Of a stretch of 24,519 bases of DNA, positions 3,063-24,519 are shown one piece after another. The DNA is from a virus (taxonomy: Duplodnaviria; Caudoviricetes). The DNA lies in IMG/VR virus record IMGVR_UViG_3300033486_000008, positions 1 through 24,519 of that record; one strand, given 5' to 3'. Each line of letters starts with the position of its first letter. Within the stretch, counting starts at the first letter, position 1. The position numbers and the translations under genes were made by a program. A model generated the notes under the pieces. It worked only from the letters and a program-made list of their open reading frames with translations. It made no database searches and was not told the origin of the DNA.

Positions 3063-3386
3063 GTGACGATGTTCAAAACGAGATATTCCCCGGGAGGGAA
3101 CGGTGGCGCGGTCAGACTTGAGTGCCGACGATGTGGGGCATTCGTAGACATGGTAGTCACTGAGATCGACGGGCCGCCGCTGTGCGACGAATGCCGACTT
3201 CCACCACCGGAGCCGATATGCGGCGAGTTGATGAGCATAGGTTGCCGCCGTTGTGGCAAGGAAGTTCGCATCGGGGTTATTGAATTGTCCAGGGCGCACC
3301 GCCCGCCATTATGCAAGGAGTGTGAGAAAAATGAGATACATGCTAATCCTGCTGTTCCTGTCAGCCTGCGGAACGGCCCCAATTGA
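3063..3386 (+). CDS. tandem zinc-ribbon protein
   Basis: Two internal repeats, CRRCG-x-PPLCDEC and CRRCG-x-PPLCKEC (CxxC-x16/x19-CxxC); AGGA RBS at 3051. Confidence 0.65.
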   Translation: MTMFKTRYSPGGNGGAVRLECRRCGAFVDMVVTEIDGPPLCDECRLPPPEPICGELMSIGCRRCGKEVRIGVIELSRAHRPPLCKECEKNEIHANPAVPVSLRNGPN

Positions 3387-3840
3387 TCAAGTCCGAGGCG
3401 CAGCACCGGTGCCAGTTGTTGCGGATAGTGCGCAGGAGCCGACAACACCTGCGGCAGGTACTTGGGGAAGCATGCAGTACGTTGAAGGACTGAGTATCTT
3501 TTATGCGTTCGATTCGGCGGATGTTGCGGCTGATTCGGAGTTGAATTTCAACGGGTGGGCGAACCTCAAGCGTCATGCCGCATATCTCAAGTCTACCCCC
3601 AGCGTCAGCGCCGTCGTGGTTGGCAATTGCGACGAGCGCGGATCCGCGGCATACAACTACGCACTCGGCCTGCGCAGGGCGGACAGTGTCAAGCAGTTGC
3701 TACTGCGCGAAGGGGTGAGCGAGTCGCAACTGTCCGTTCGGAGCGACGGAAAGTCGAATCCTGTTGCAAATTGCCACGCCGAGCAGTGCTGGCGCCAGAA
3801 TAGGCGCGTCAATCTTGAGTATCGTTACGAGTTGAAATGA
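3331..3840 (+). CDS. Pal/OmpA-family peptidoglycan-associated lipoprotein
   Basis: AAGGAG RBS, ATG 3331. Lipoprotein signal MRYMLILLFLSA-C. OmpA-C motifs GNCDERGS, YNYALGLRRADSVK, GKSNP, CWRQNRRV. Confidence 0.88.
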   Translation: MRYMLILLFLSACGTAPIDQVRGAAPVPVVADSAQEPTTPAAGTWGSMQYVEGLSIFYAFDSADVAADSELNFNGWANLKRHAAYLKSTPSVSAVVVGNCDERGSAAYNYALGLRRADSVKQLLLREGVSESQLSVRSDGKSNPVANCHAEQCWRQNRRVNLEYRYELK

Positions 3841-6019: not shown

Positions 6020-8065
6020 ATGACCGAGAAGATCAACTACGTCAAGTACAAATCCATCCGCGAGAAGGCTGAGAAGCTGTACGCAGATGTCGTCGATGCC
6101 TTCAAAGAGAAGGACGAACAGAGTCAGAACATTGACAACTACTGGGACATATATAACTGCAAATTGAACTCGAAGCAACAGTACGAGGGTGATTCTGCCG
6201 TGTTTGTCCCCGTGGTCCGTGACGCGATCGAAGCGGCCGTAAAACGCCGCGTCTCCATGCTCATGCCGACGACTGGGAAGTGCATTGACATCATATCCGA
6301 GAGCGGTGACATTCCGTACGAAACAATCGCCGTACTTGAGCACTACATTCGAGCGTGCAAACTGAGAACCTTCCTGCCAGGCGTGCTTCGCCGCGGCGAT
6401 GTCGAGGGTCAATGGTCTTTTATGGTCGGCTGGGATAAGTCGGTCAGAAAGACTCGCCGCAAGGTCAAAAAAGAAAATCCGGATAACATCACCGAAGAAA
6501 TCGAGGATATGGAGGATGTCGAGATTGTCACAGCGGGGCCGACTGTAACGGCTATCCCCGCGCAAGATCTCGCCGTTGTACCGGCGACTGCCCCGAGCGT
6601 GCAGGACGCAGACATGGTGATCGTGGCGCTCCGGTACACCAAAGACAAAATGGATTCGCTCGTTGCGGATGGAACGTTCTCGCAATCGGCCGTCGATAAG
6701 ATGGCGAAAGGCGTAGGCGATAAGAAATGGTCGGACAAGGATCGATCCGCCGAGGCTGGCGTTCGGATGAAGGGTTCCCAGAAGTACTACTTCATCTACA
6801 TGGTGTGGATGGACTTCAAGGTCGAAGATGAAAAAGAACCGTGTATCCTCTATTTCGGTGGCCCGCAGATCGTCCTCGGGATAGAGAAAAACCCGTATTG
6901 GTCGGGGAAAGTCCCGATTCTGTCTGAGCCAGTCGATCTTATCCCCGGCTCGTTCTGGGGAAAATCCCGTATCGCGCCGGTCGAGCAGTTGCAGTACCAG
7001 TGCAACGATGCGATCAACATGGGAATGGACAGCGCGAAGTATAGCGTTCTGCCCATTGTGATGACCGACCCCGTAAAGAATCCGAATGTAGGATCGATGA
7101 TCCTGGCCGCAGCTGCGATCTGGGAGACGAGTCCGAACGACACAAAATTCGCGCAATTCCCGGCATTGTGGAAGGATGCGCTCCAACTTGTCGCAGCCAC
7201 AAAATCTCAGATCATGGAGAGCATGGACGTGAACGATGCGATGATGGGGCGCTCACCGTCTGGTCGGAAAAACGCGCAAGCCATCGCCCAGCAGGAGGCC
7301 GCTGCGATGGCGACTATCGCCGATCCGGTCCGCCGTTTCGAAACGGGGATTATGGACGAACTGCTGGAATGGTTCTTTGAGCTCGACCAACAGTTCCGCG
7401 ACGATGACTTGCTGATCCGTACCGAAGGCGATGTCGGTCTGGCCGCCAAAATACAACGTATCCCACCGCAGTCGTTCGAACAGCGGTATTTTTTCAAGTG
7501 GAACGGTGTCGAACAGGCAATGGGAGCGCAGCGCGTCCAGCAAATGATCGGATTCATGAACGTCCTGCGCGGTATGCCGCCTCAAGCAATGAATGGTCGC
7601 ACACTCGACATCACGCCTATCATCGACTACGCCTCGGAAGTTGTGTTCGGCCCGAATATTGCCCCGAGGGTCATCGTCGACAATCGCAATAAAATGTCGA
7701 TCGATCCGGACACCGAGAACGAGATTATGCATAACGGGATGGACATGGCGGTATCTCCGTTGGACGACGACATGCGCCATCTGCAGTCGCATCAGGAGGC
7801 TGCACGACTTACTGGCGACAACGCCGGTCACTTTAGAAAACATATGATGTTGCACGCGGCAGCGGCACAAGCTAAAGCGCAAGCGGCGGCGCCACAACCG
7901 CCGAAAGGATTGCCAGGGGTGCCAGGCGGGGGTAATCAACCCGGAGTAGCGGGCACGCCACGCCCAGGCGCAATTCCCGCCGGCCCGCGCGGCGGCGCGC
8001 AACAGCCGCCCGGTGCGATACCGCAAGACCAAATGCAGGACGCGTCGGCGGGCGGTAGAGGCTAA
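6020..8065 (+). CDS. portal protein
   Basis: 681 aa, after terL and before scaffold/MCP. Podovirus portal-like segments (PGSFWGKSRIAPVEQLQYQCNDAIN; NAQAIAQQEAAA) and a low-complexity P/G/Q C-terminal tail. Confidence 0.88.
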   Translation: MTEKINYVKYKSIREKAEKLYADVVDAFKEKDEQSQNIDNYWDIYNCKLNSKQQYEGDSAVFVPVVRDAIEAAVKRRVSMLMPTTGKCIDIISESGDIPYETIAVLEHYIRACKLRTFLPGVLRRGDVEGQWSFMVGWDKSVRKTRRKVKKENPDNITEEIEDMEDVEIVTAGPTVTAIPAQDLAVVPATAPSVQDADMVIVALRYTKDKMDSLVADGTFSQSAVDKMAKGVGDKKWSDKDRSAEAGVRMKGSQKYYFIYMVWMDFKVEDEKEPCILYFGGPQIVLGIEKNPYWSGKVPILSEPVDLIPGSFWGKSRIAPVEQLQYQCNDAINMGMDSAKYSVLPIVMTDPVKNPNVGSMILAAAAIWETSPNDTKFAQFPALWKDALQLVAATKSQIMESMDVNDAMMGRSPSGRKNAQAIAQQEAAAMATIADPVRRFETGIMDELLEWFFELDQQFRDDDLLIRTEGDVGLAAKIQRIPPQSFEQRYFFKWNGVEQAMGAQRVQQMIGFMNVLRGMPPQAMNGRTLDITPIIDYASEVVFGPNIAPRVIVDNRNKMSIDPDTENEIMHNGMDMAVSPLDDDMRHLQSHQEAARLTGDNAGHFRKHMMLHAAAAQAKAQAAAPQPPKGLPGVPGGGNQPGVAGTPRPGAIPAGPRGGAQQPPGAIPQDQMQDASAGGRG

Positions 8066-9398: not shown

Positions 9399-10865
9399 AT
9401 GAAAAAACTTTTCGCAACAATCTTCTCGTTCTTCGAAGAACAACTGTATCGCTTGACGATGCAGTTCATGGAGCGTAGCGGCGGCATTTGCTATGCGACC
9501 AACAACGCCAGCACATTCAGTTCCGATATTCGCAACTATATCGCCGAGAAGGTGCTGCCTCTGGCAAAACGTCAACTGACCGCATACCAGTTCGCCGACA
9601 AGCTGAAACTTCCCGCAAACATGGGCACGACCTACACGGCAACTCGTTACAGTCGTCTGAACCTGCCGTTTGCACCGTTGTCGGAAGGCGTACCGTCTGC
9701 TGGCGAAGCGATGACAATCAGCCAGTCGCAAGGTGTCGCACAGCAATGGGGCGATTCTGTGAGCATCACTGACGTTGCCGAGATCACCATCGCGCATGAC
9801 GTGTTCAAGCAAGGCATGAAGCTGGTCGGTATGCAATTGGCCGAAACGATGGAGCGCAACTCTTACACCGGCACGAACGGTCTGATGGCCGGAAGCAACA
9901 TCAATTACGCCAACGCCAAAGCCAGCCGTGCAGCCCTGTTAGCGACCGATGTACTATCCCCTCACGAAATCAACCGTGCGGTGAACGTCCTCGAACTGTC
10001 CGGTGCGCCGAAATTCGGCGATCCTGAAAAAGAGTCGTATGAAGTCGATGCTCGCCAGAAGAAAGGTACGGTCAATCCCCACTATGTTGCCATTGTGCAT
10101 CCGTCTTCTGCACAAGACATGCGTGAAAACTCCACCGTGTCTACCGCCTGGTCGTACAGCGACATCAATCGCCTGTATACGAACGAATTGGGCGAATGGG
10201 GCGGCGTACGCTTCACCAAATCGAATATGGTTCCGTTCTGGACCGGCGTAGCTTTGGTTAGCGGCACTCCGGCAACCACTGGCGGCGCGTTGGCTGCAGC
10301 GAACTACATCATCCAGGTTACTGCATCCCCCGCGTTGACCTCCATGGAGCAGCGTATCTACCAGCAGTCGGCCCCGATTACGGTCGGCGGCTCCGGCGCA
10401 GGTTCGATCTCGGTGACTCTGCCGACATTGGCTGGCTACGTGTTCAATGTGTACATCTCCGCAGCAGGTAGCTCCAGCGTCGTCAATCTCGGTCTGTGTG
10501 CATCTGGTCCGACTACCGGCCCGCTGGCCGGCCAAGCTACTCAGTTGGCCTCCGGTGCGACCGTTGTGATCACTGGTGTTGGCGCCGCGCAAGTACCGCC
10601 CGCAGCTCCGGCTACCGGCGTTAGCGTGTACCCAACTTTCGTGATCGGCGAGAATGCCTACGGTGCGGTCGAACTGGACAGTGCGAAGTTTGAGTACCTG
10701 AAGGAAGCTGACAAGTCCGATCGTCACAACCAGTTGCGTTTGATCGCGTGGAAGATTTTCTACGGCATGATCATCCTCAACCAAGCATTCATGATGCGTA
10801 TCGAGAGCGGTAGTGCGTTTGCTCCGACATACGACTCTGGTGCTGTTGCCGGTGTGACGTACTAA
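9399..10865 (+). CDS. major capsid protein, N4-gp56-like family
   Basis: GGGAG RBS, ATG 9399. Motifs QFADKLKLPANMGTT, RY, PLSEGVP, QQWGDSVSITD, YVAIVHP, ELGEWGGVRF, DKSDRHNQLRLIAWK and ILNQAFMMRIE are typical of N4-gp56-type coat proteins. Confidence 0.92.
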   Translation: MKKLFATIFSFFEEQLYRLTMQFMERSGGICYATNNASTFSSDIRNYIAEKVLPLAKRQLTAYQFADKLKLPANMGTTYTATRYSRLNLPFAPLSEGVPSAGEAMTISQSQGVAQQWGDSVSITDVAEITIAHDVFKQGMKLVGMQLAETMERNSYTGTNGLMAGSNINYANAKASRAALLATDVLSPHEINRAVNVLELSGAPKFGDPEKESYEVDARQKKGTVNPHYVAIVHPSSAQDMRENSTVSTAWSYSDINRLYTNELGEWGGVRFTKSNMVPFWTGVALVSGTPATTGGALAAANYIIQVTASPALTSMEQRIYQQSAPITVGGSGAGSISVTLPTLAGYVFNVYISAAGSSSVVNLGLCASGPTTGPLAGQATQLASGATVVITGVGAAQVPPAAPATGVSVYPTFVIGENAYGAVELDSAKFEYLKEADKSDRHNQLRLIAWKIFYGMIILNQAFMMRIESGSAFAPTYDSGAVAGVTY

Positions 10866-11809: not shown

Positions 11810-12469
11810 ATGCTAACCGCTGCCCAACTCGTAACCGTAGCGTGCCAGATTGCAAAATGCCCTGGCTACACTCAAATTGCCGGGCAGCGGCTGAATGAAA
11901 TTCTGGTCGATCTGGCACTCGACCAGAATCTTGACAGTATCCGCCGCACTATCACCCTGAACGTTCAGCCGAATCAGCAGGCATACCAACTGCCCGTCAA
12001 TTTCTTGCGCGCTCGCGAGTGCTTCTACAACGTGAACGGCGCAGTTTTCATTGTGACTGAGTACGCACTTGAGGACTTTGACGCGCTTTTTACCGGGCCG
12101 AACAATTCCGCCTATCCCGAAATCTTCACGGTGGACGCATCCACCAATATCTTGCAGTTCTACCCGCTACCACTTGTCCCGTTGAGCGTGACTTTCCGCT
12201 ATATGGACAATACGGTTGAACTCCCGACCCCGGATACGAACAATGGCGTGCCGTGGTTCCCGCAGCAGGCGTATCTCATTGAGAAGCTGGCAGCGAAAAT
12301 GATGCAGGTAACTGACGATGTCCGCGCAGACTCCTTTGACGCTCGCGCGGACGAGATCTTGCGTCGTTACCTGAAATTGAACAATGGAAATGTACTGAAG
12401 ACCGTGCAGTTGGATCCACGGCGGTTCAACAATCCCCGCGATTTGAAGGCAACAAAATTGTACCCATAA
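11810..12469 (+). CDS. head-tail adaptor / tail tubular protein A-like
   Basis: GGAG RBS; helical N-terminus followed by NQQAYQLPVNFLR and FYPLP motifs; typical size and position. Confidence 0.7.
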   Translation: MLTAAQLVTVACQIAKCPGYTQIAGQRLNEILVDLALDQNLDSIRRTITLNVQPNQQAYQLPVNFLRARECFYNVNGAVFIVTEYALEDFDALFTGPNNSAYPEIFTVDASTNILQFYPLPLVPLSVTFRYMDNTVELPTPDTNNGVPWFPQQAYLIEKLAAKMMQVTDDVRADSFDARADEILRRYLKLNNGNVLKTVQLDPRRFNNPRDLKATKLYP

Positions 12470-12470
12470 T

Positions 12471-13256
12471 ATGACTAAGCCGCTCATCATTGCCGATGGT
12501 GTACTACCAGAAGCGCGCGCGTTTCACGATGCGCGCGAGGCGCTAGTCGATTGGCCCGAGATCGTGCTGTTCTCCCACGTGGCGAACTTCGTTGGCGAGG
12601 AAGTGCCGGCCGACGCGGTGATCTACAATCTCGAACCGCTGTACGAGGGTTGTCAGAGTTTTTCACTTGGATATCGCGACCTTCTCCGGCGGCATCCCGT
12701 GCTTGACTACCAGGCGCGCAATGTCGAGTATCTGCGATCGCTCGGTATCGAAGCGGTGCACATGCCGTACGGCTATCATCCGTCGATGTGGCGGCCTGCA
12801 CATGCGGTCAAGGATATTGACGTACTGTTCTTCGGGAGCCTCCTCAGTGACCGCAGGAAACGGATACTGGATGAACTCGCTGTAGCAGGGGTCAAAGTCA
12901 CCGCGGCAACCGACTGTTACGGCGCAGATCTCGACAAAATGGTCGCCCGTTCGAAAATCGTGCTGAACATCCATCGGATGGATCATTTGCCGCTCGAAGT
13001 AGTCCGCCTGAACTACCTTCTTGCCAATGGCGCGTTCGTCATATCTGAGCGAGGGTGGGATGAGTCGGATAACGTCACGTATTCGCCCGGCCTAGTGTAT
13101 GCGGCACCCGACGACGTAGTTCCAGCGTGCCGATATTTTTTGAAGAATACTGACATTTGTGACGGTATTGCAGCCAAAGGGCAACATATAATCCGAAACA
13201 TGCCGCAAAGCCGTTTCATCAAACAAGCGCGCGCCGCGCTGGGGGTGTACGCATGA
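12471..13256 (+). CDS. glycosyltransferase (GT-B fold, C-terminal nucleotide-sugar-binding domain)
   Basis: DIDVLFFGS, RRKRIL, ARSKIVLNIH, EVVRLNYLLANGAFVISE. Confidence 0.8.
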   Translation: MTKPLIIADGVLPEARAFHDAREALVDWPEIVLFSHVANFVGEEVPADAVIYNLEPLYEGCQSFSLGYRDLLRRHPVLDYQARNVEYLRSLGIEAVHMPYGYHPSMWRPAHAVKDIDVLFFGSLLSDRRKRILDELAVAGVKVTAATDCYGADLDKMVARSKIVLNIHRMDHLPLEVVRLNYLLANGAFVISERGWDESDNVTYSPGLVYAAPDDVVPACRYFLKNTDICDGIAAKGQHIIRNMPQSRFIKQARAALGVYA

Positions 13257-13807
13257 AGAACATGCTCAAAATCGCATCGGGCTTGGATGTTATGCCGCTG
13301 GTATTGGCTATCCAGCGCAATCCGCATTTGTGGAATCGGAATACCCAACGGACTGAGCATCCGTCATCCCCACATCATGGTTTGTCCGACATCTGGGTTC
13401 GATATTCGGATGGTGATCTCGACCCGAAAGTTCCGCACGATTCAGTCTGGTATCCGGCATACCGTGATCTCCCACAAGTGCGTGAGCTGGTCTTCAATCT
13501 GATGCGCTACGTCGAAGGAGAGCGCCTCGGCGGGGTACTCATTTCCAAAATACCGCCCGGCGCCACGTGTAAACCACACGTCGATATTGGTGGCTGGCAC
13601 GCAGAGTATTACGACAAGTACGCGATCCAACTGCAGGGGAATGCCAAGCAGGCGTTTCATTTTGAGGGCGAGTCGTTTTCCGCAATGCCTGGCGATGTGT
13701 ACTGGTTTGATAACCACCAGAAACATTGGGTAACGAATGACAGTGACGAAGACCGGATGACCATGATTGTCTGTATCCGGTCCGCACGATTCAGAGAGGG
13801 GATTTAA
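13253..13807 (+). CDS. aspartyl/asparaginyl beta-hydroxylase-family 2OG-Fe(II) dioxygenase
   Basis: ATGA overlap with the GT gene; HxD (PHVD), distal H (WFDNHQKHWVTN), 2OG-binding R (DRMTMIV). Confidence 0.85.
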   Translation: MKNMLKIASGLDVMPLVLAIQRNPHLWNRNTQRTEHPSSPHHGLSDIWVRYSDGDLDPKVPHDSVWYPAYRDLPQVRELVFNLMRYVEGERLGGVLISKIPPGATCKPHVDIGGWHAEYYDKYAIQLQGNAKQAFHFEGESFSAMPGDVYWFDNHQKHWVTNDSDEDRMTMIVCIRSARFREGI

Positions 13808-13808
13808 A

Positions 13809-14831
13809 ATGCCTTGGGTAGCAGCCGTTGGTTCAGTAGCAGCAGCCGCGATGGCGCCAGATCCGTCAGGGACCGCTGGCGGCGTCAGATCAACAGTGCA
13901 ATTGCCAGATCAAGCCGGAGCTGCGCAAGCGTTAAATCTTGCCAATCAGAACTACATGACGCAAGCGGGGCAATTTTACGGGCTTGACCCGCAGTACGCG
14001 AATCAAGCCTTCAATGCTATGTACAACAACCCGTACGCCGGCGGAATGCAGACCGCCGCGGGCCAAGCTGGAACGATGGCCGGACAATTCGCTCCGCAAG
14101 CCGCCGCCATGGGGCAGGGGGCATTCGGGGCTGGTCAACAAGCTCTCGGGGCAGGGCAACAAGTCTGGCAGACTGCGCAAGATCCTCAGAACGCGCTGTT
14201 CAACCAGTTGCAGAATCAGGTTCAGCAGCAGGCCAATGTGACCAACTCGCAGTATGGTTTGGGGTCTTCGCCAGCTGGTGCGGCCGCTGCGAATCAGGCG
14301 TTGGGTCAATTTGACATAAATTGGCAGAACCAACAATTGGCACGGCAACAGCAAGGGCAGCAGGCGCTGAATGCCGGTATCAATGCGTACACTGGCGCTG
14401 CACAGCAGGGGCTCGGGATGGGGCAGGCTGGAATCAGCCTGCAGCAACAGGCCGGAGCGCTGCCGTACGCTACCGCGCAACAGATCGGTCAGGGCCAATT
14501 CGGCGCGATCAACCAGAATCAATTGGCGATGCAGGGCGCGATGCAGCCGTACCAACAGAACATCAACAATCTGAACTCGTACCTCGGATTGGGCCAAGCC
14601 GCCCAAGCGCAAGCCAACCAGCAAGCGTACCAGCAGCAGCAAATGCAGAATCAGCAGATTGCGGGATTGGCGCAACTCGGAACTCAGGCGTACACGTCGT
14701 ACATGGGGCAGCAGCCGCAACAACAGCCGACGTATGATCAGACGACCGGAGCTGGCACAACATCTTTGGGGACGAGTTTCTATAACCCGAGCGCATCGGG
14801 GTATGACACGACTGGATGGTCGGGAGGCTGA
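13809..14831 (+). CDS. DNA ejection (internal virion) protein 1
   Basis: ATG 13809 after GAGGGG; hydrophobic Ala-rich N-terminus and Q/A/G-rich helical body, like P22 gp7-type proteins. Confidence 0.7.
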   Translation: MPWVAAVGSVAAAAMAPDPSGTAGGVRSTVQLPDQAGAAQALNLANQNYMTQAGQFYGLDPQYANQAFNAMYNNPYAGGMQTAAGQAGTMAGQFAPQAAAMGQGAFGAGQQALGAGQQVWQTAQDPQNALFNQLQNQVQQQANVTNSQYGLGSSPAGAAAANQALGQFDINWQNQQLARQQQGQQALNAGINAYTGAAQQGLGMGQAGISLQQQAGALPYATAQQIGQGQFGAINQNQLAMQGAMQPYQQNINNLNSYLGLGQAAQAQANQQAYQQQQMQNQQIAGLAQLGTQAYTSYMGQQPQQQPTYDQTTGAGTTSLGTSFYNPSASGYDTTGWSGG

Positions 14832-14833
14832 TC

Positions 14834-16021
14834 GTGGACTTCGGACACTTTTATGGAAATTTGGGTGCGGCGGCGCCGGGCGCGTTGCAAGGTGTGCAAA
14901 ACGCGCAAGATATGCAAGCGCGTCAGTTCAATATGCAGCAGGCGCGCGACCGCGAGGCTCGGCAGCAGGCGGCGTTTAACGCGCAAAAAGCCGCAGACGC
15001 AGCGTACCGTCAAACGCTGCAGTCTGTATACGGGCAGCAACAGCCAATGCCGCAATCTCCGATGCCCGGTCAAGCCTCTGTGCCGATGGTGCAGCCTGCA
15101 ATCGCTCCGTACCAAGCGATGCCGACTACCCCTGTTCCGCAGGGCGTGCCGCCCGCGGCGAATTTGACTCAATCTGCGGTTCAGGGGGTTCAACTGCCCC
15201 AAAAACCGACCGTGGCGAAACAACTCGACATGCAGGCCGTAATGTCGAATGCGCCGAAAGATCCTGAAGCGTTCGACATATACATGGCGAAAATGGCGCC
15301 ATTGCTCAAACCGAAAAACGAATGGTCCGAGCCGACTGAGATGAACGGAACGATAGTTCAGAAGAACGCGACAACGGGCGAAGTCCGCCAAGTGTTCAAA
15401 CCTGTGGCTGAGAAAGGCGAATGGTCTGAGCCATTCCAACTTAACGGCGCGACGGTCCAGAGGAATGAAAAAACCAAGGAAGTTCGTAAAATAACAGCGC
15501 CGCCTGGCGGTGCGGGGGGTGGCGCTGGTAATTTGGGGCACTTGAATGCCTTCATGGCGCGCGAAACGAAAGACCTCGCCCCAATTACGGACGGGCAGAT
15601 GAAGTCAGCCAAGATTATCGCCCTTCTCGATAGCGGCAATGCCGTCGCAACGCCGCAAGTTCAGCAGGCGTTGTCTGACTTGTACAGCCACTTGCGCGCA
15701 ACTACGCAGATCTACGCGGATAACAAGAGCTTCGGCAATGTCGAGCAGCGTTTGGCGAATTCGATCAATCGGTTCCTGTCCGGTAAATACTCATCTGACG
15801 ATAAGAAGATGATCCGAGATTTGGTAACGGAGATGAACGATAAGGTGTTCGCACCGGCAAGAGGTAATGTCGTAAAGAATTACAAGAAACAGGCCAAAGC
15901 GTTCGGGTATGACCCAGATGTGGCTGAAATCCAAAATCCGTATGAGGCTGCCTCACCTGCCGCCAAGCCGACGCCTCAAACGTCTTCCGCGCCGCCGGCC
16001 GGTTTCACGGTATTGGAGTAA
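14834..16021 (+). CDS. DNA ejection (internal virion) protein 2
   Basis: GGGAGG RBS then GTG 14834; Q/P-rich; internal 33-aa repeat; C-terminal PPAGFTVLE. Confidence 0.65.
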   Translation: MDFGHFYGNLGAAAPGALQGVQNAQDMQARQFNMQQARDREARQQAAFNAQKAADAAYRQTLQSVYGQQQPMPQSPMPGQASVPMVQPAIAPYQAMPTTPVPQGVPPAANLTQSAVQGVQLPQKPTVAKQLDMQAVMSNAPKDPEAFDIYMAKMAPLLKPKNEWSEPTEMNGTIVQKNATTGEVRQVFKPVAEKGEWSEPFQLNGATVQRNEKTKEVRKITAPPGGAGGGAGNLGHLNAFMARETKDLAPITDGQMKSAKIIALLDSGNAVATPQVQQALSDLYSHLRATTQIYADNKSFGNVEQRLANSINRFLSGKYSSDDKKMIRDLVTEMNDKVFAPARGNVVKNYKKQAKAFGYDPDVAEIQNPYEAASPAAKPTPQTSSAPPAGFTVLE

Positions 16022-16023
16022 GC

Positions 16024-18789
16024 ATGGCTGAATGGACTCCGGTAGAAAAAGTGGCAAAAAATGCCGAGGGCAAATACGTAGCCCTCGTTGGCGGGTCATG
16101 GGTTCCAGTTGAGCGCGCGGCAAAAAACGCCGAAGGAAAGTATATGGCGCTCGGGGTTCCGACTACGCCTTCGCCCACAGCGCCCGTTCAGGATGAATCG
16201 CCACTGGGGTACATCGCGAATAAGTTCAAACAGGGCGTAGCATCGTTGCCTGCGCTCGGGCCGCTGGCAGCGGACGTTGTGAATATGCCGATTCGCCCAT
16301 TCACTAGGGCGATGGGGGCTGGAAATCTCGGGGGTGGCGCGGATACTCGGTTCGTACAGTTTCCGGCGACCGAACAATACAATCGCGCCATGTCTGGGGC
16401 TGGGGTATATGACCCGAATATGCCGATACCTCGAGATGAGACTGGCAAGCCAAAATTTACCGCTGAATTAGCGGGTAATATCGCTGAAATGGCAGGCATG
16501 AATGTCATACCGGGGACTGGCGCAGTTGTGCGTAGCGCGCGGCCGGGGGTTGCGTTGGCAAAAGAACTAGCCGGCACAGCGCTATCCGGCGAAGGTATGA
16601 CGATGGGCGGCCAACTCGCCGGATTGGATGTGTTTGGCAAGCCGTCTGCAGAAAAGAAAGCCGCGGGAGAAGCGCTCGGCAGTATGACCGGGCCGATGCT
16701 CGTACAGAAGGCTATCGACGCAGCGGCAAAAGGCGGAAACTGGCTGAACAAAGTAGGTGTGCCAATCGGTCTGACTAAAGCGTCGCGAGACGAGCAAATC
16801 GCCCGGATGGCGGCAGAGCAGCAGGAGCAAGCCAAAAAGGTCGCTGCGGGGCGACTACAACCGCAACTCGAAACTCCCGCCGCACAACAGGCGATTGCGC
16901 AATCTCAAGATATTTCTCGTAGGGTGCCGGGATTCGGCGAGAACCTGACGCTCGGCCGTGTGACGGGTTCGCCTGCAATCAAGTCGATGGAGCAGCATTT
17001 CGCGTCCACAGACCCCGCAATGCTTGAGTTGGCAAGTCAGCGTGAGCGCGGGCTTAACGAGGCGATTCGTCGGTATTCGGAGCAACGGTTCCCAGCGCCA
17101 GAATGGAGCGCTCAAGATGAGGTCAAATATATCTATTCGAACCGACTGCGCAGTTTTGACGATGGCCTGAAACGACTCGACCGGCAAGAGCGCAAACTGG
17201 CAGCGTCTTTGCCGCGCCAGGACATCGAAGACATCGGAAAGCAACAACGCCAGCTTGTCGGGGAGCGCATGAACATCGCCCGCCAAAAGAAAGACACGTT
17301 GTACAAAGAGGTCGCAGATACCGCAGAACGTCTCGGGGTGAAAGTCAACATGGGCGACGTGGTAGATTTAGCCAAATCGCACGCGGGCGGCGACCTCAGA
17401 AAATTTCAAGACGACCCCGGTGTGATAGGTAAGATTCTTCGAGAATATGCGCCGGCGGCAAAAGCTCGGGTAGCGAAAACTACGCCAGGCGGGGGTCAAA
17501 TCTTCACGATTGGCGCCGCGCCTGCCGTCAAGCCGCCAATCGCCAAATATGGGGAATTCGAATCGCTATATCGTGAAGCGAACCGTGAGGCTATGACGCT
17601 CGGGGTCGCTGCATCTGGCGGAGATTTACAAGCAGCGCAGAAATTGCCTGCGGTGAACTCGATTCGCGAGTTGCTACGCTCGAAGATTGAAGAAATGGCG
17701 AAGCCGGAGTACGGCGAAGTCGGGAAAAAGTTGCAGACTGCCAATGCGTACTACCGAGATCAGTACGCCAATCTGTTCAAACGCGGCGTTGGCGCAGAAA
17801 TTTTGAAGACGGGAAAGTTCGGGCCGGCGACAGAGAACGCAAAACTGACCGAGTCGCTGATATTCAAGCGCGGTGATCCATCTGGCGTCACCGAATTCTT
17901 GAACGCAGCTGGCGGCGATCCCCGAGGCATGAGACTGCTGGAAAACGGCGTATTTGATATGCTGTCGAAAAAGGTAGTGCGCGATGGGAAAGTGTCGAAA
18001 ACGGCGCTGGAAGGTTTCCTGCGTGACTACAAAGAACCTCTGGCTGAAGTTCCTGGCATCCGTAAGAAAATTGAGTCTGTCGAGAACGCAACTCGTTCTT
18101 TGCAGGAAAACACCGCGCGGGCGACGGCGGGGCAATCACAATTGGCAAAAAGTACGCTCGCAGCGGTTGCACGAGAAGAGAATCCTGCCAAAATCATCGC
18201 AAACGCCATCAGGTCGCCGAAATATCTTGATACGCTCATGGCTAACGTCGGCGCTGAGTCTAGGAAAGACGTGGCGCGCGGGGTGATGGAACACGCGCTA
18301 GGTGTGCCCAATGCCGCGGAGTTCATGAAAACGAACGAGGTCGCTTTGAAGAAGATGCTCGGGGCGAAGCAATACGCCAATTTGAAGACTATCGCCCAAG
18401 CCCGAGAGGTTGCCGAGCGCGTGAAGCCGCCAGGCTACGTTCAATACCAGAAAGAGGGCGACGTACTCGGACAATTCGGAACAAGTGTCCCGCAGGCGGT
18501 GTCCGACATAAAAGGTATCTTGCAGAAACGAGCGGGGTCGTCTTACATAGGCACTTTGATGGGTACTCGGTGGTGGAACAAATTGCGCAACGATGAAGTT
18601 GATCGGCTGATGAAAAGCGCAGTCTATGACCCCGAGTTGGCTAAAGCAATCGCGGAGTATTCCAGTAGCGGAAGCAAAGCGGCAGCACATGCACTGGACG
18701 ACCATTTGATAGCGCACGGAATTCGCTCAGTTGCGGTAACATTGGCAGGAAAAGGGCAACGAGAAGATCAACAGGGAGCTGAACAATGA
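16024..18789 (+). CDS. large DNA ejection (internal virion) protein 3
   Basis: 921 aa, helical, Ala/Lys-rich; third of three size-graded genes, as in podoviral ejectosomes. Confidence 0.7.
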   Translation: MAEWTPVEKVAKNAEGKYVALVGGSWVPVERAAKNAEGKYMALGVPTTPSPTAPVQDESPLGYIANKFKQGVASLPALGPLAADVVNMPIRPFTRAMGAGNLGGGADTRFVQFPATEQYNRAMSGAGVYDPNMPIPRDETGKPKFTAELAGNIAEMAGMNVIPGTGAVVRSARPGVALAKELAGTALSGEGMTMGGQLAGLDVFGKPSAEKKAAGEALGSMTGPMLVQKAIDAAAKGGNWLNKVGVPIGLTKASRDEQIARMAAEQQEQAKKVAAGRLQPQLETPAAQQAIAQSQDISRRVPGFGENLTLGRVTGSPAIKSMEQHFASTDPAMLELASQRERGLNEAIRRYSEQRFPAPEWSAQDEVKYIYSNRLRSFDDGLKRLDRQERKLAASLPRQDIEDIGKQQRQLVGERMNIARQKKDTLYKEVADTAERLGVKVNMGDVVDLAKSHAGGDLRKFQDDPGVIGKILREYAPAAKARVAKTTPGGGQIFTIGAAPAVKPPIAKYGEFESLYREANREAMTLGVAASGGDLQAAQKLPAVNSIRELLRSKIEEMAKPEYGEVGKKLQTANAYYRDQYANLFKRGVGAEILKTGKFGPATENAKLTESLIFKRGDPSGVTEFLNAAGGDPRGMRLLENGVFDMLSKKVVRDGKVSKTALEGFLRDYKEPLAEVPGIRKKIESVENATRSLQENTARATAGQSQLAKSTLAAVAREENPAKIIANAIRSPKYLDTLMANVGAESRKDVARGVMEHALGVPNAAEFMKTNEVALKKMLGAKQYANLKTIAQAREVAERVKPPGYVQYQKEGDVLGQFGTSVPQAVSDIKGILQKRAGSSYIGTLMGTRWWNKLRNDEVDRLMKSAVYDPELAKAIAEYSSSGSKAAAHALDDHLIAHGIRSVAVTLAGKGQREDQQGAEQ

Positions 18790-20132
18790 GCCGCGTACTA
18801 TTTATCGACACTGCCTCAAATTGCCTTGACCTAGCCATGCGTTGTCAACGGCATGGGCATGACGTGGTATGGTTTGAATCACTTCGCGCAGATGGCACAA
18901 AGCGTCGTGCGGGTGACGGCATTGTGAAAAAGATCAGCGACTATGGCGAACTTCGCCGCAAATGGCTCGATTGGGCCGACTTGATCTATTTGACCGATAA
19001 CGCAAAGTACATGGAATTGCTCGAATCGTACCGTTTGAAAGGCTACCCAATTTTTGGCGGCGGTATTCATGCTGCGGAATTGGAAATTGAGCGCATGGCT
19101 GGGCAGGATGCGATGAAAAAAGCCGGAATGAATATCATCCCTGGCAAAGAGTTCAAAGACTACAAATCGGCTGCTGCGTTCGTCGAAAAGACTGGTAAAG
19201 CCTACGTCAGTAAGCCGTGCTGGGATGCCGCGAAGGATTTAACGTATGTGGCGAAAGATCCCGACGATCTGATCTTCATGCTTGAGTCGTGGAGCAAAAA
19301 TCAACAATACCGCGCGCAAGCTCGCAAACACGGGTTTATTCTCCAAGAAAAAGTAACTGGCACGGAGTTTGCTGTCGGCGGCTTCTTCGGCCCGCACGGA
19401 TGGAATAAGCAATTTTTGGAGAACTTCGAGTACAAAAAACTGGCAAACGACGATCTCGGGCCCGCGACCGGAGAGATGGGAAACGCGGCCAAAGCGGTTA
19501 CAAAAAGCAAACTAGCCGAAGAGGCGTTGTTGCCGATGACTGCGCAATTGCATGAAATGGGCTATGTGGGATATGTGGATAACAATTGCATCGTAGACGA
19601 CTCCGGCAAAGTTTGGCCGTTGGAATTCACGATTGGTCGTGATGGATGCCCAATACGATTCAACCGCGACGCACTTGTCATCGGCGACCCGATCCAATGG
19701 ATGATCGATCTGATAAACGGTCAGGACACGCTTAAAATGCGACCCGAAGTGTGCGTGTCGGTTGTTGTTGCACTTCCCCCGTTCCCTTACCAGCATAAAA
19801 TAGGGAAAGATCTTGACGGGACGCCAGTTTGGAACGCTTTTGATATTGAACACGTGCACCCTGTCGAGATGCGCGTCGAGCAGGACATACCGACGTGGGA
19901 CGGTAGCAAGATACAACGACTGCCCGGTTACGTGGCGACTGACGACTACGTATGCGTTGTGACCGGCCTCGGCGCTACAATCACGGGGGCGCGGCGCTCT
20001 GCGTATAATGCCGTGAAGAAAGTGAAAATATCGAGATCTCCGTTTTACCGGACGGACATCGGAGCAGGTCGATTGGTAGAGCAACTGCCAGTGTTGCAGA
20101 AAAACGGGTTTGCTAAAACTTGGGTACGATGA
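18786..20132 (+). CDS. PurD (GAR synthetase)-like ATP-grasp ligase
   Basis: AAELEIER...MKKAGM, YVSKP, FILQEKVTGTEF, EYKKLANDDLGPATGEMG (compare PurD DHKR..DGDTGPNTGGMG), LEFT and FYRTDIG. Confidence 0.8.
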   Translation: MSRVLFIDTASNCLDLAMRCQRHGHDVVWFESLRADGTKRRAGDGIVKKISDYGELRRKWLDWADLIYLTDNAKYMELLESYRLKGYPIFGGGIHAAELEIERMAGQDAMKKAGMNIIPGKEFKDYKSAAAFVEKTGKAYVSKPCWDAAKDLTYVAKDPDDLIFMLESWSKNQQYRAQARKHGFILQEKVTGTEFAVGGFFGPHGWNKQFLENFEYKKLANDDLGPATGEMGNAAKAVTKSKLAEEALLPMTAQLHEMGYVGYVDNNCIVDDSGKVWPLEFTIGRDGCPIRFNRDALVIGDPIQWMIDLINGQDTLKMRPEVCVSVVVALPPFPYQHKIGKDLDGTPVWNAFDIEHVHPVEMRVEQDIPTWDGSKIQRLPGYVATDDYVCVVTGLGATITGARRSAYNAVKKVKISRSPFYRTDIGAGRLVEQLPVLQKNGFAKTWVR

Positions 20133-20133
20133 G

Positions 20134-21846
20134 ATGGGCATCCGCGCCGCACAGCCATTACAGTTCAGCCCGCGTGGGCTGACCGACGCATTCGACGAGG
20201 TCGATTCGTTCCCAGGTGCGTGCCGCGCGCTATCGAATTTGATTTTCGATTCGGCTAATCCTGACCAAGTCATAGCTCGGCCAGGTGTTGGTCTGCCGAT
20301 AACGTCCTTCGCCACGTTCAATGCCCCCGGTTTCATCTCTATCCAAGAAACGGTCGGGGATATTACGTTTGGGATGATCGCAAGTAGCCGGAATCCCGGA
20401 TTTGAGGAGCCGTTCGCGTTCAATAACGTGAGTGGAACGTTCATTACCATATCCGGCGTCACTGCCGGGAACGTACCGGCCAATGCCCCGTCTACCGGCG
20501 CGTGGACCCCGCCGACGATGACCTCCATTGCGAAGAAAATAATAATTACACATCCGGGGTTCTCGGGGGCGGGGGCTAATTTCTTCGGGGTGCTGGACGT
20601 CACCAATTTGAATGCCCCTACCTGGACTTCTGCAAATACGACGACAAATGCGTTGCCGTCAGTTCCGACTTCGGTGGCGAACTTCAACAATCGGGCGTAT
20701 TACGTCTGCGGAAATCAGATGTACGGCAGCGATTCGCTGTCTCCACTGGTCATCACGAACCTGAATTCAACCGTGACGGTCGGGGATTACACCGCGATAA
20801 CCGCCCAAAGCGGCCTGCCGATGCAAACGGTCAGTTCTGGCGTCACTGCGACGCTCGTAGTGTTCAAGGCAAACTCCGTGTGGATATTGACTGGCGATAC
20901 GGTTTCAAGCAATCTTACGCTCAGTTTCGTGTCGCTGAACGTTGGTTGCCCGCATCCCCGTAGCGTTGCCCAAACGCCGATTGGAACGATTTTTATCAGC
21001 CAGGACGCGCCGTACAATTTATTGCCGAGCGGCATATTGATCGAACTGAAGAATCCAAGCAATCTAGCGTCCGATGTCAGAATTCCGTTTCAGAACTCAC
21101 CGATGCCGTCGCGGACGGCCGCCGCTTTCGCGGGTAGCATATACCGCGTATGCGTAAACACGGTGATCGACGGAATTGTCCAGACCAACGACTATTGGTT
21201 CGACCTTCGCCGCTTGCGGTGGACCGGTCCGCACACGTTCCAGTATGATTGTGCGAGTCAATACAACGGACTGTTCATCCTATCCGGCGTCGGTACTGGC
21301 GCGGCACTGTTCAATTCGATCTTCGGCAATACGACGCAAAATACCGTCTACAACGACAATGGCGTTGCCATCGGAGTCACCGTGACGACGACGAATTTGC
21401 ATGATAGCGACACGATGGAGTTCAAACAGGTAGTCGAGTCAACTATTGATGTTACATCGAGCGGGCAGTCGGTATCATTCTCAATAACCGCAAATGACGA
21501 TCTAGGCGCGGTTCTAGCCTCGGCGTCTGTCGCAACCCCGTCGGCGAGTGCGGTATGGGGCGCCTTTAATTGGGGGGATGGGACAGCGTATTCGACGGCA
21601 AATACCCACCCTCGCAGGTATGACGTTGCATGGAACGTCCCGATCGTGTGGGATCGGATGAGTTTGACTATCACGACTGGGAGCGCCAACGGTGTCGCCA
21701 TCGGAAAATTTAAAGCAAAATACCAGCGTTGCGGGTATACTTTGCGCGCGCCACTGTTGCCTGGCGTCATCCCAACTCCGGCGTCGCCGCAGGCAGGAAA
21801 ACAGTTGGACGTGAATTTCGTATTGGACCAATCGCCATTATCGTGA
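20134..21846 (+). CDS. tail nozzle / tail tubular protein B-like (P22 gp10-like)
   Basis: About 570 aa, beta-rich; propeller-type motifs (LVVFKANSVWILTG, NVGCPHPRSVAQTPIGTIFIS, YWFDLRRLRWTGPH). Confidence 0.72.
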   Translation: MGIRAAQPLQFSPRGLTDAFDEVDSFPGACRALSNLIFDSANPDQVIARPGVGLPITSFATFNAPGFISIQETVGDITFGMIASSRNPGFEEPFAFNNVSGTFITISGVTAGNVPANAPSTGAWTPPTMTSIAKKIIITHPGFSGAGANFFGVLDVTNLNAPTWTSANTTTNALPSVPTSVANFNNRAYYVCGNQMYGSDSLSPLVITNLNSTVTVGDYTAITAQSGLPMQTVSSGVTATLVVFKANSVWILTGDTVSSNLTLSFVSLNVGCPHPRSVAQTPIGTIFISQDAPYNLLPSGILIELKNPSNLASDVRIPFQNSPMPSRTAAAFAGSIYRVCVNTVIDGIVQTNDYWFDLRRLRWTGPHTFQYDCASQYNGLFILSGVGTGAALFNSIFGNTTQNTVYNDNGVAIGVTVTTTNLHDSDTMEFKQVVESTIDVTSSGQSVSFSITANDDLGAVLASASVATPSASAVWGAFNWGDGTAYSTANTHPRRYDVAWNVPIVWDRMSLTITTGSANGVAIGKFKAKYQRCGYTLRAPLLPGVIPTPASPQAGKQLDVNFVLDQSPLS

Positions 21847-21854
21847 GGCAAGAG

Positions 21855-23381
21855 ATGAAGAATACTACAAAACGATTCGTAGCTGCGCTTACGGGGCTAT
21901 TGTTCTCGGTTCACGTAGTCGCAGCGGGATTTCCGTTCCAGCCCGGCCAGATTCTCAATGCGAACGACCTCAATACGGCGCTGCAGACTGCCGCGATAAC
22001 AAGCGGGAGCGTCGGCAACGTCAGTATCGTAAACAGCACCATATCGAATTCCACGGGATCGTTCAACACGCTTACGTCGCCATCCGTCAATTTGACCGGC
22101 GGGCTGATAAATAGCACGTCTATCGGGGTAACGGGGCAATCCACTGGGGAATTCACAAGCCTGTCGGCGTCCTCATCTGTGTCTGGTGCCGGCATAACCG
22201 CGCTGTTTGCATCGCCACCGGCAATCGGCAGTACTACTGCGGGTACGGGGGCGTTCACAACGCTTACCGCGTCAACTTCGGTATCTGGCGTTGGGGTAAC
22301 TTCTCTTTTCGCATCACCGCCGGTCATAGGCGGCACGTCCGCAAATGCCGCGACATTCACGACATTAAATTCAGCCTCGCTCGGAGTAACTGGAACGGCC
22401 ACGGCATCTGCAGTTACTGCAACAAACGCTGTATCTGCAGTAACCGGAGTGTTCACTAATGTCAATACTTCCGGAACAGAGACTGCGCCATTTGTGAACG
22501 TAACAAATAACCTCACGGCATCAGGCGTGACGGTTACGAACGTTCTTACCTCGAATGTTGCTACAGGCACGGCACCATTCGTTGTGTCGTCCACCACTCC
22601 TGTTGCGAACTTGAGTATTGGCGGGAACGCCGCAACAGCTACGACTGCTGCAGGCTTTACAGGCACGGCGGCTTGTAAAATTGCGGCAGTCAGTGCATCA
22701 GTTGCAGCCAATGCGATGACGGTAGGCGTATCAGCGCAGTATTTGGATTTTCGTAGCGCGAACGCCGGCAGCGGTGTAGTCAGCACGATAAACGCTGCTC
22801 CGGCGAACATCGTCATTCCGTCGGGCGCGACACTCGGGACCATAAGTGCAGTAGCTTCCACGATTGTTGTGGCAGAAATGAACAACGGGGGAACTGCTGA
22901 GTTGGCAGTCGCGAATATCTCCGGCGGCCTTCAGATGGACGAAACGAATCTGATCAGCACTACCGCAATAAGTTCCGTATCTTCCGCATCGAATATCTGG
23001 TACTCAACGACTGCGCGTACTTCTCTGCCATATCGTATTGTTGGACGGATTGATTCTACCCAAACTGTGGCTGGTACTTGGGCGACTGCGCCGAGTCTGA
23101 TACAAGGGGCTGGCGGCAATGCCATAACTGCGATGAGCAGTTTGGGGTATGGGCAAACGTGGCAGTCTTTTACTTCTGGCACGCGGGTATCGGGAACAAC
23201 GTATTACGATACAACAGGGAAGCCGATTTTTCTCTATATTAACGCCGCCTCAATAAATCTGGTGGTTGGCGGCACAACTGTTTTTAATGCGTCCGGCGTC
23301 CCCGTGAGCGCGGTTATCCCGCCAGGGATGGCGTATTCAGCCACGTATGGGTCGGGGTTGACATGGTCCGAGCTTCGTTGA
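21855..23381 (+). CDS. tail fibre protein with N-terminal signal peptide
   Basis: ATG 21855. FQPGQILNANDLN anchor motif, S/T/G-rich shaft repeats (IGxTxxxxGxFTTL), C-terminal LGYGQTWQ...GTTYYDTTGKPI...IPPG...WSELR fibre-tip domain. Confidence 0.8.
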   Translation: MKNTTKRFVAALTGLLFSVHVVAAGFPFQPGQILNANDLNTALQTAAITSGSVGNVSIVNSTISNSTGSFNTLTSPSVNLTGGLINSTSIGVTGQSTGEFTSLSASSSVSGAGITALFASPPAIGSTTAGTGAFTTLTASTSVSGVGVTSLFASPPVIGGTSANAATFTTLNSASLGVTGTATASAVTATNAVSAVTGVFTNVNTSGTETAPFVNVTNNLTASGVTVTNVLTSNVATGTAPFVVSSTTPVANLSIGGNAATATTAAGFTGTAACKIAAVSASVAANAMTVGVSAQYLDFRSANAGSGVVSTINAAPANIVIPSGATLGTISAVASTIVVAEMNNGGTAELAVANISGGLQMDETNLISTTAISSVSSASNIWYSTTARTSLPYRIVGRIDSTQTVAGTWATAPSLIQGAGGNAITAMSSLGYGQTWQSFTSGTRVSGTTYYDTTGKPIFLYINAASINLVVGGTTVFNASGVPVSAVIPPGMAYSATYGSGLTWSELR

Positions 23382-23395
23382 TGAGGGGTGAGACA

Positions 23396-23842
23396 ATGAT
23401 ACGCGCACTTATTATAGTACTCTGCTTACTGGTCACGCCAGCGTTCGGCGACCAATACTATCAATCGCCGAATGGGGCATTGCACTTCTTGTCTACCGAT
23501 GACATACGGAATGGCGGCGAACGCTTATTGCCTGTTGGAGCGCTGCCGATTACTGCAGCGCAAGCAGCAGTCGCCCAACAACAGCAAGCTGCGCAACAAG
23601 CCTTACTGCCGAACGCCCTCGGTTTCCAACAAGCAGTAAAGACTGCCCTTGGCGGAATTGTCGGCGCAAACACCCTGATGGTTGCGTACCCCGCATTTCT
23701 TCCGGCGCTGCAGCAAGGTCAATGGGCGGACCTGCAAGCACTCATCATTGACGCAAATACACGTGCGATTTTGACCCCGGCGCAGTATTCTGCGATTAAA
23801 ACGGCTGCAGCCGCCAACAATATCCCGGTGACACTACCATGA
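23396..23842 (+). CDS. putative tail fibre assembly/chaperone-like protein with signal peptide
   Basis: GAGGGGTGAG before ATG 23396; directly follows the fibre gene; mature part begins YYQSPNGALHFLS. Confidence 0.6.
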   Translation: MIRALIIVLCLLVTPAFGDQYYQSPNGALHFLSTDDIRNGGERLLPVGALPITAAQAAVAQQQQAAQQALLPNALGFQQAVKTALGGIVGANTLMVAYPAFLPALQQGQWADLQALIIDANTRAILTPAQYSAIKTAAAANNIPVTLP

Positions 23843-24519
23843 CCAAATTACTGACCGTATTCGCTGCGCTTCTCATGTCGTTCGCCGCATCGGCGGCAAC
23901 GATCATCAATCCGCTACCGAACAATATCCAGAACGGGCAACCGGCGGATGCGACGAAATTGATGGGGAACTTCAACCAGATCGTCAATAACGTCAATGGC
24001 AACGCAGCTGCGATAAACGCGGCCAATGTGTTTTCTGCTCCGCAGCAATTCAGCGCAGCTGTTACGCCGAATCAAGGGGTGATCGCCAGTCAATTGCAAA
24101 ACGACACGATGGTGTGGCTGGGGATCGCGGGCGGAACGGCAAACGCACTGACGGCGACACCTTCGATCGCTCCGGTAGCGTATACGAGCGGTCAACGGTG
24201 GAAAACTGTCGCGGCGTTCACAAATACGGGGGCAGTTACGATCAACATCGGCGGGCTCGGAGTTCGTGCGATTACGAAATTCGGTGCAGCGCCGCTTCTG
24301 CCAGGGGACATAACTGCCGGTCAAATTCTGGCGTTAGAGGATGACGGTATTGAGCTGCAGCTGATAAACCCGCTTCAGCCTGGCGGACTTCCGTATGTTG
24401 ACGCCACTGGGTCAGCAAACGCAATAACGGGCGCGTACTCGACTAGAACAAACTTGACTCTGGTTGACGGGTTGGACCTGACGGTCGGGATTGCGACGCC
24501 GAATACGTCCGCCAGTGTT
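23839..24519 (+). CDS. second tail fibre protein with signal peptide (partial, runs off window)
   Basis: Not in ORF track (no stop in window). ATGA overlap; MTKLLTVFAALLMSFAASA-ATIINPLPNNIQNGQPADATKLMGNFNQIV...GGTANALTAT...TNTGAVTINIGGLGVRAITK...LLPGDITAG, a common fibre domain that starts to repeat (TGSANAIT) at the edge. Confidence 0.8.
   Translation, partial: MTKLLTVFAALLMSFAASAATIINPLPNNIQNGQPADATKLMGNFNQIVNNVNGNAAAINAANVFSAPQQFSAAVTPNQGVIASQLQNDTMVWLGIAGGTANALTATPSIAPVAYTSGQRWKTVAAFTNTGAVTINIGGLGVRAITKFGAAPLLPGDITAGQILALEDDGIELQLINPLQPGGLPYVDATGSANAITGAYSTRTNLTLVDGLDLTVGIATPNTSASV

Follow-up and report, generated by a model that had tools for sequence, protein, structure and literature searches.

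The 24,519-nucleotide stretch analyzed here in full (the window; positions 1 to 24,519 of IMG/VR virus record IMGVR_UViG_3300033486_000008) comes from an uncultured podovirus, i. e. a short-tailed phage, and represents its late region; the record is estimated to be 57% complete. Its genes run in the order terminase (3837), SU10-like portal (6020), scaffold (8554), capsid (9399) and SU10-like adaptor (11810), followed by probable ejection proteins (13809–18789), an ATP-grasp gene and the probable tail nozzle (20134). Behind the nozzle lie three consecutive genes (genes 1–3, Table 1), each of which starts with a leader that resembles the signal peptide of an exported protein. It is these leaders, and the use that a tailed phage might make of them, that are considered here.

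Three leaders and their start sites

The initial annotation had ascribed classical leaders of the Sec/signal peptidase I type to genes 1–3. All three were located at the same positions and with the same sequences, and each comprises a basic n-region, a hydrophobic h-region and a small-x-small end, as judged by our own rule-based n/h/c-region predictor (not SignalP). This predictor was positive for 3/3 leaders and for 0/16 other genes of the window (one of them entered at a non-start codon), with null rates of 19/5643 (0.3%) for internal segments and 14/385 (3.6%) for antisense starts, and with positive calls on 2–9% of shuffles of the first 35 residues of each protein. It additionally fired on a head-region spike (5478) and on a Pal-like lipoprotein (3322). 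No leader is present on the portal, scaffold, adaptor, nozzle, ejection proteins or terminase of the window. Small residues occupy positions −3 and −1 at the homology-defined junction in genes 1 and 3; for gene 2 the site is ambiguous (16 or 18), as the predictor prefers residue 16 over residue 18 for the uncertain cut. The lipoprotein (signal peptidase II) and twin-arginine translocation routes were rejected for all three leaders on the basis of the consensus motifs for lipobox and twin-arginine signals: there is no lipobox Cys at the cut and no RR motif. The only Cys of gene 2 sits within the h-region and is absent from its counterpart in the related contig L083.

The start codons are backed by ribosome-binding-site-like stretches or by stop/start overlap, as had been proposed. 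Genes 1 and 2 are preceded by a stop and a purine-rich stretch (anti-Shine–Dalgarno duplex −5.7 and −13.2 kcal/mol, respectively), while the ATG of gene 3 overlaps the stop of gene 2 (ATGA). No in-frame ATG, GTG or TTG occurs at any of the three junctions between leader and mature part. Alternative starts within the leaders, namely a TTG at codon 16 of gene 1 (−4.5) and an ATG at codon 13 of gene 3 (−1.6), have weaker ribosome-binding scores. Contigs of one public sequencing run, which may be the window's own source, are identical to 21500–22242 and 22896–23955, all three leaders included; they gave no extension of gene 3. Taken together, the data support that the leaders are real, conserved in character and confined to appendage-type proteins.

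Table 1. Positions of the features under discussion, in the window and (L numbers) in related loci; aa, amino acids.
Feature	Position	Strand	Remarks
Gene 1, fiber-like, 508 aa	21855..23381	+	Predicted signal peptide, residues 1–23 (21855–21923)
Gene 2, 148 aa, fiber-chaperone slot	23396..23842	+	Predicted signal peptide, residues 1–16 or 1–18
Gene 3, fiber, 227 aa, cut off by contig end	23839..24519	+	Predicted signal peptide, residues 1–19 (23839–23895)
Spike-like head-region protein, 162 aa	5478..5972	+	Predicted signal peptide of 26–28 residues
Pal/OmpA-domain lipoprotein	3322..3840	+	Lipobox-like leader; PF00691 E 8e-14; orthologue in L025
SU10-like portal	6020..8065	+	PF23899 E 2e-16; leaderless; no M48 peptidase gene 3' of portal
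Major capsid protein	9399..10865	+	PHROG 1357; 31-residue N-terminal insertion (9402–9494), not signal-peptide-like
SU10-like adaptor	11810..12469	+	PF24175 (Pfam) E 7e-12; leaderless
Probable tail nozzle	20134..21846	+	From size and position only; leaderless; C-terminal extension of ~30 aa
M48-like zinc peptidase gene after portal	L001:2632–2976, L014:3594–3938, L057:5933–6280 and others		
Signal-bearing fiber-like gene between portal and spike	L012:4213–5307, L001:3408–5657, L100:4196–5302, L103:4128–5327		Burkholderia/Paraburkholderia prophages
Fiber-like genes with signal-type leaders	L167:5611–9665; L166:6108–7205		Cultured Bradyrhizobium and Pseudomonas phages

Proteins behind the leaders

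The assignment of the three genes to a fiber module is supported for genes 1 and 3, and only weakly for the supposed chaperone encoded by gene 2. In gene 1, the signal peptide is followed by a short anchor helix, a low-complexity shaft and two C-terminal beta domains, with one Cys in the mature part. Its C-terminal half matches in tblastn the 'major tropism determinant' of Pseudomonas phage AH02 (E 7e-24) and a 'putative tail fiber' of Acinetobacter phage Scuro (E 1e-3). An AlphaFold2 model (mean predicted local distance difference test score 70) retrieves viral tail fibers in Foldseek; against the PDB, its residues 431–508 gave only middling matches to small beta-barrels (best Z 7.5), and neither gene 1 nor the adaptor has a PDB sequence match. 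A scan of viral contigs with gene 1 and of genome contigs with the capsid returned no match. Among 120 listed homologues of gene 1, seven score as signal-bearing, i. e. gene 1 itself, five that share the N-terminal anchor and one with a different N-terminus, while the other 113 have different N-termini and mostly only the C-terminal part in common. The leader is retained in P0002, P0003, P0008, P0009, P0011 and L104.

Gene 2 belongs to no Pfam or PHROG family, and its mature part is devoid of Cys. A chaperone role is only weakly suggested by size, position and a weak structural match to a tail-fiber-assembly cluster (template modelling score 0.34, Atlas). Gene 3 matches tail protein PHROG 4900 (E 1e-8) and is the orthologue of the gene directly after the nozzle in most relatives. 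It carries the conserved N-terminal anchor domain of the family, which we infer to dock on the tail; this domain is more than 40% identical to that of leaderless fibers in the same gene slot. Full-length orthologues with leaders comprise 694 and 708 residues in L083 and L104, respectively. A profile of 70 anchors found its best PDB match at E 0.58.

The head-region spike belongs to this signal-bearing appendage set as a fourth member, outside the region that the initial annotation had covered. All of its 12 matches score as signal peptides (12/12, self included and with a query that contained the leader). Its fold resembles the N-terminal part of CBA120 TSP4 (Z 9.7, root-mean-square deviation (rmsd) 2.8, 94 aligned residues) and the capsid spike of Pseudomonas phage Pa223 (Z 9.1, rmsd 2.4, 89 aligned). 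The spike has a signal-type leader in the lineage of the window and an M48-type leader (see below) in other members of the family.

Distribution among relatives

The leaders had been said to sit just before what would be a normal N-terminus, and in gene 3 the predicted cut indeed coincides with the Met of leaderless orthologues. In L083 (nozzle identity 64%), genes 1, 2 and 3 occur in the same order, each with a divergent leader and the same mature start, and two further leader-bearing genes precede the endolysin. In L104 (67%), leaders precede genes 1 and 3 as well as three further genes. L083 and the record L024 are one phage, as they overlap by 6602 bases at 100%.

The anchor domain of gene 3 is present in 147 of 150 listed representatives, with 66 leaderless, 45 behind a long hydrophobic leader and 35 behind a short or charge-interrupted one, an additional anchor with a mis-called start being excluded from these classes; the share of 45/147 is inflated, because the query contained the leader. 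A leader-blind census, for which loci were fetched by nozzle or capsid, yielded 70 anchors (55 leaderless, 2 hydrophobic, 13 short). The 45 hydrophobic leaders have an uncharged run of at least 11 residues and a length of 15–28, whereas the others are short or charge-interrupted. Applied loosely, within one residue of the junction, the (−3,−1) rule holds for 45/45 hydrophobic versus 10/35 other leaders, and in its strict form for 37/45 of the former. In a tree of the 147 anchors (61 columns, quick method), leader states are clustered, the hydrophobic type requiring 10 changes versus 39 after shuffling; the well-supported branches of this tree force only 2 changes.

A further variant is found in Burkholderia and Paraburkholderia prophages, in which the anchor fiber is leaderless and a second fiber-like gene after the portal is signal-bearing (10/10 non-redundant loci). 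The proteins encoded between portal and spike in these prophages contain an even number of Cys or none in 8/10 cases. The leader trait is not peculiar to the phage of the window. Moreover, the anchor domain also occurs leaderless or behind a second, short amphipathic leader type, which the initial annotation had missed.

A second, M48-linked leader type

Most of the phage family carries this second kind of leader on the capsid, the scaffold, the spike and sometimes the gene 3 anchor. Behind the portal, a protein of 110–150 residues with an HExxH motif is encoded that is M48-like (3/5 above the Pfam cut-off, and by alignment). Among 23 non-redundant portal-to-capsid loci, the capsid has a leader in 16/16 with an M48 gene and none in 6/7 without (Fisher p 7e-5, with related loci counted as independent). 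The small M48-like peptidase is likely to be a leader peptidase of the phage. The sole locus with a capsid leader and no M48 gene is the window, where the leader is an unrelated insertion of 31 residues right after the initiator Met; no protease candidate for it was found in the window. This insertion adds 31 codons, which include acidic residues, between the ATG and the position at which L024 and L025 start; the ribosome-binding site in front is the same. An M48 gene was found neither between portal and scaffold in the window, as far as a 57% complete record goes, nor in the 41-kb, 86%-complete relative L024, where a positive control was found.

The three leaders behind the nozzle have long uncharged cores and small-x-small ends rather than the short or charge-interrupted, Pro/Leu-Gly/Ala-Val-like make-up of the second type; they belong to the hydrophobic class and not to the M48-linked one. 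As a separate observation, an ejection-type protein of one relative (L102:9235–10359) apparently has a leader of the short M48 type, which would be an indication that such leaders function in the cytoplasm.

Cysteine content and glycosylation

A possible trace of the compartment in which these proteins fold is their cysteine content. Among anchor proteins of more than 150 residues with at least two Cys, the count is even in 25/26 leader-bearing versus 10/16 leaderless proteins; for all Cys-containing ones, the ratio of even to odd counts amounts to 26/11 with and 10/41 without leader (Fisher p 2.5e-6, for kin that are not independent). In a downstream signal-bearing gene, L083 and L104 share a Cys pair with identical placement. 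Six of eight homologous loci were compared for this domain, in which five leaderless distant homologues have no Cys and the sixth, which is leader-bearing, has one.

The initial annotation had also proposed O-glycosylation of S/T-rich shafts by a PglL-type enzyme in the periplasm. This part is not borne out: the S+T fraction is 0.22 in 43 leader-bearing versus 0.21 in 61 leaderless proteins (p 0.012), and the window's own glycosyltransferase-like, hydroxylase and ATP-grasp genes are leaderless, too.

Parallels in cultured phages and known systems

A parallel in gene type and order comes from Cellulophaga phage phi18:3 (KC821620), a podovirus of the Pachyviridae. Between 22000 and 71400 of its genome, 12 genes are marked 'structural protein, experimental MS/MS' (tandem mass spectrometry). 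Three of these (gp085–087), which are consecutive and fiber- or tailspike-like, score as signal peptides, whereas the other nine are negative; one unannotated gene of the same region also scored. Like the window, phi18:3 combines three consecutive signal-scoring fiber- or tailspike-like genes with leaderless core proteins, and in both the even-Cys pattern is missing; unlike the window, it has a Bacteroidota host. The signal peptides are not remarked in its record, and a literature search listed no paper that mentions them together with phi18. Signal-bearing scores were also obtained for the annotated tail fiber of a prophage of Bradyrhizobium USDA 122, which contains 18 Cys, and for gp17 of Pseudomonas phage AH02. 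According to the available part of the respective report, the USDA 122 prophage produces siphophage particles (PMC10127595).

Fibers of SU10-, T7- and P22-type podoviruses are held to fold in the cytoplasm. With these and with the leaderless post-nozzle fiber of the Burkholderia and Paraburkholderia prophages, the window fiber shares the gene slot, the N-terminal anchor and a modular shaft and tip, but while they have their Met at the anchor, it has a predicted cleavable signal before it. Virion proteins with leader peptides are familiar from filamentous phages, whose pIII and pVIII, the receptor-binding protein among them, are cut by leader peptidase and added to the particle outside the cytoplasm. 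Unlike the products of genes 1 and 2, which lack a transmembrane anchor and belong to a phage with a tailed capsid, pIII and pVIII are membrane-anchored, and the virion is extruded without lysis.

Bacterial fibers supply another likeness. In Bdellovibrio, phage-like fiber trimers that carry signal peptides arrive at the cell surface, as described in the accessible text of PMC10769870. There, the MAT fibers of B. bacteriovorus are depicted as phage-fiber-like trimers in which a conserved N-terminal domain (~130 residues and beta-rich in the MAT family) comes after the signal peptide, and which are displayed outside the cell; they differ from the window proteins in being chromosomally encoded cell-surface adhesins that belong to no virion and in many cases carry an S74 chaperone. 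No S74 Pfam match was found in the window genes or in gene 3 of L083. By analogy, the appendage export proposed below would work like the leader-bearing adhesins of filamentous phages and of the MAT family, although it is a member of neither group.

For the short leader type, the best analogue is Staphylococcus phage 80alpha, in which the host protease Prp removes the leaders of capsid and scaffold (PMC5744158, in the part available). These are likewise short, removable N-terminal leaders on virion proteins, but they are cytoplasmic, comprise 13–14 residues and belong to core head proteins, as opposed to the long uncharged cores on appendages in the window.

Proposed route of assembly and its alternatives

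Export of the receptor-binding apparatus to the periplasm, as put forward in the initial annotation, with late joining to the particle, is the reading favored by the leaders, their conservation and their placement. The even Cys counts of leader-bearing homologues, the signal-scoring structural proteins of phi18:3 and the surface-displayed Bdellovibrio fibers speak for it as well. We consider it reasonably probable that the last-added appendages are exported by Sec, cleaved by signal peptidase and joined to the particle at lysis, as far as this can be read from sequence. In such a scenario, the host Sec machinery would export the products of genes 1–3 and the head spike across the inner membrane, where signal peptidase I would trim the leaders and thereby restore the N-terminus native to leaderless orthologues. 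The appendage trimers would fold in the periplasm, while heads and tails are built in the cytoplasm, and the folded fibers could dock once lysis breaches the inner membrane. In vitro, finished particles are able to take up fibers, tailspikes and decoration proteins. Likely benefits would be an oxidizing environment in which some members could form disulfides, and a stock of free fibers that might mask receptors as well. The nozzle ends in an extension of about 30 residues (about 21750–21846), which is also present in L083 and may be mentioned here as a candidate docking peptide for a late-added fiber.

Several observations weigh against this scenario. In L104, gene 3 is followed by a small protein that is leaderless, as are 5/5 partial homologues of gene 2, which share its C-terminal half only. 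A hydrophobic leader is found on only 2/70 anchors of the leader-blind census. The (−3,−1) rule is weakly specific, since junctions slid by −3 or +18 residues pass in 38/45 and 43/45 cases, respectively. The mature proteins of the window show no disulfide signature (1, 0 and 0 Cys for genes 1–3, the last of which is truncated, and none in the spike), and gp085–087 of phi18:3 contain 0, 1 and 3 Cys. Moreover, the structural status of the latter is a GenBank note, and virion preparations may contain co-purified secreted proteins. That no leaderless substitute was found speaks for the scenario, but within limits: the only anchor gene of L083 is leader-bearing, with 7.5 kb of the contig outside the search, and the 41-kb L024 record gave no match to gene 3 in a search that had no positive control. 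Finally, the predictor fires on 7/16 M48-linked capsid leaders, hence on a protein assembled in the cytoplasm, so that 'signal-like' alone does not mean export in this phage family.

This last point leads to the strongest, though unlikely, alternative, according to which the leaders serve as membrane tethers or as propeptides that are cut off at the cytoplasmic face, with fibers that fold and attach in the cytoplasm. Its main basis is the M48-linked capsid leaders, which the initial annotation had missed. The pairing of these leaders with the peptidase gene suggests that capsid, scaffold and spike leaders are likely cut by M48, the gene 3 anchor and the head spike bear the short leader type in other members of the family, and the capsid of the window has a non-signal leader of its own. 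The Prp-cut leaders of 80alpha provide a precedent for such processing, as far as the available text of PMC5744158 describes it. Opposed to this are the lack of a detectable M48 gene in the window (57% complete) and in its 86%-complete relative, the clean separation of the 45 hydrophobic leaders from the short or charge-interrupted ones, and the even Cys counts, which accompany the hydrophobic type only.

It is improbable, in our estimate, that the proteins are exported and never join the virion, for example as periplasmic or surface decoys, as superinfection blockers or as adhesins of the lysogen derived from fiber genes. Such a function would fit the Burkholderia and Paraburkholderia prophages, where the anchor fiber is leaderless and the signal-bearing second fiber could be dispensable for the particle, and secreted fiber-like adhesins do exist in bacteria (PMC10769870, available part). 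However, the gene 3 anchor is more than 40% identical to that of leaderless fibers in the same slot, the search of the L024/L083 phage yielded no leaderless anchor gene, the genes are start–stop coupled within the late operon, and mass spectrometry is the annotated basis for counting the signal-bearing phi18:3 proteins among the virion proteins. Lastly, that the leaders are untranslated or functionless, with true starts downstream or as neutral retained extensions, is very improbable: most close relatives are leaderless (55/70) and codon 13 of gene 3 is an in-frame ATG, yet the junctions lack start codons, the inner starts have weak ribosome-binding scores, and the character of the leaders is retained across divergent sequences in three phages and in 45 clusters at 50% identity.

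Further features of the window

Relatives whose nozzle is 45–50% identical reside as prophages in Burkholderia, Paraburkholderia and an uncultured betaproteobacterium (6 loci). The nozzle has no family match and no PDB sequence match, and it is matched by no cultured phage; the capsid is matched only by distant capsids. The Pal-like lipoprotein gene points to a presumably diderm host and to the use of host export machinery. It lies directly 5' of the terminase gene, also in L025, and may have an envelope-stabilizing or superinfection function. The N-terminus of the scaffold (8554–8700) consists of a tandem 10-residue acidic repeat in four copies. Several leaderless enzymes are encoded within the virion operon, namely a P-loop hydrolase/sulfotransferase-like protein (1610–2194), a glycosyltransferase-like protein (12471–13256), an Asp/Asn beta-hydroxylase (13253–13807) and a PurD-like ATP-grasp protein (18786–20132). 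The beta-hydroxylase and ATP-grasp genes recur across the phage family beside the ejection genes. In L083, the ATP-grasp gene (L083:4913–7171) encodes 752 residues with an internal LAGLIDADG domain, which is probably an intein.

Implications

The leaders are a real feature that is built from known parts. No published account of signal peptides on tailed-phage fibers was found in literature searches that reached few subscription papers. In their available parts, PMC5723332, PMC3426561 and PMC10127595 (in which the word 'signal' is absent) have no bearing on fiber signal peptides, and a recent preprint (bioRxiv 10.64898/2026.04.10.717836) describes, as far as its available text goes, a processed capsid esterase with no signal peptide and no bearing on fiber export.

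The common assumption is that tailed-phage particles reach completion in the cytoplasm, and the absence of signal peptides has been used in one paper as support for a phage origin of fiber-like proteins (PMC6199706, in the part available). From the sequences at hand, we lean toward the view that many tailed phages may instead split their assembly: head and tail core would be cytoplasmic, every appendage (fibers, fiber chaperone, head spike) would leave by Sec and fold in the periplasm, and infectious particles would arise only once lysis mixes both. The anchor of this family would then switch among no leader, a leader cut by the phage M48 peptidase and a host-Sec leader. The question is accessible in cultured systems, namely Cellulophaga phi18:3 and the Bradyrhizobium USDA 122 prophage. 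If the proposal is true, expressing such proteins would need export or removal of the leader, and annotation pipelines in which signal-bearing phage genes are classed as morons would be misplacing genuine virion proteins. Lysis would then be the last step of assembly, and receptor-binding proteins could make use of periplasmic folding.

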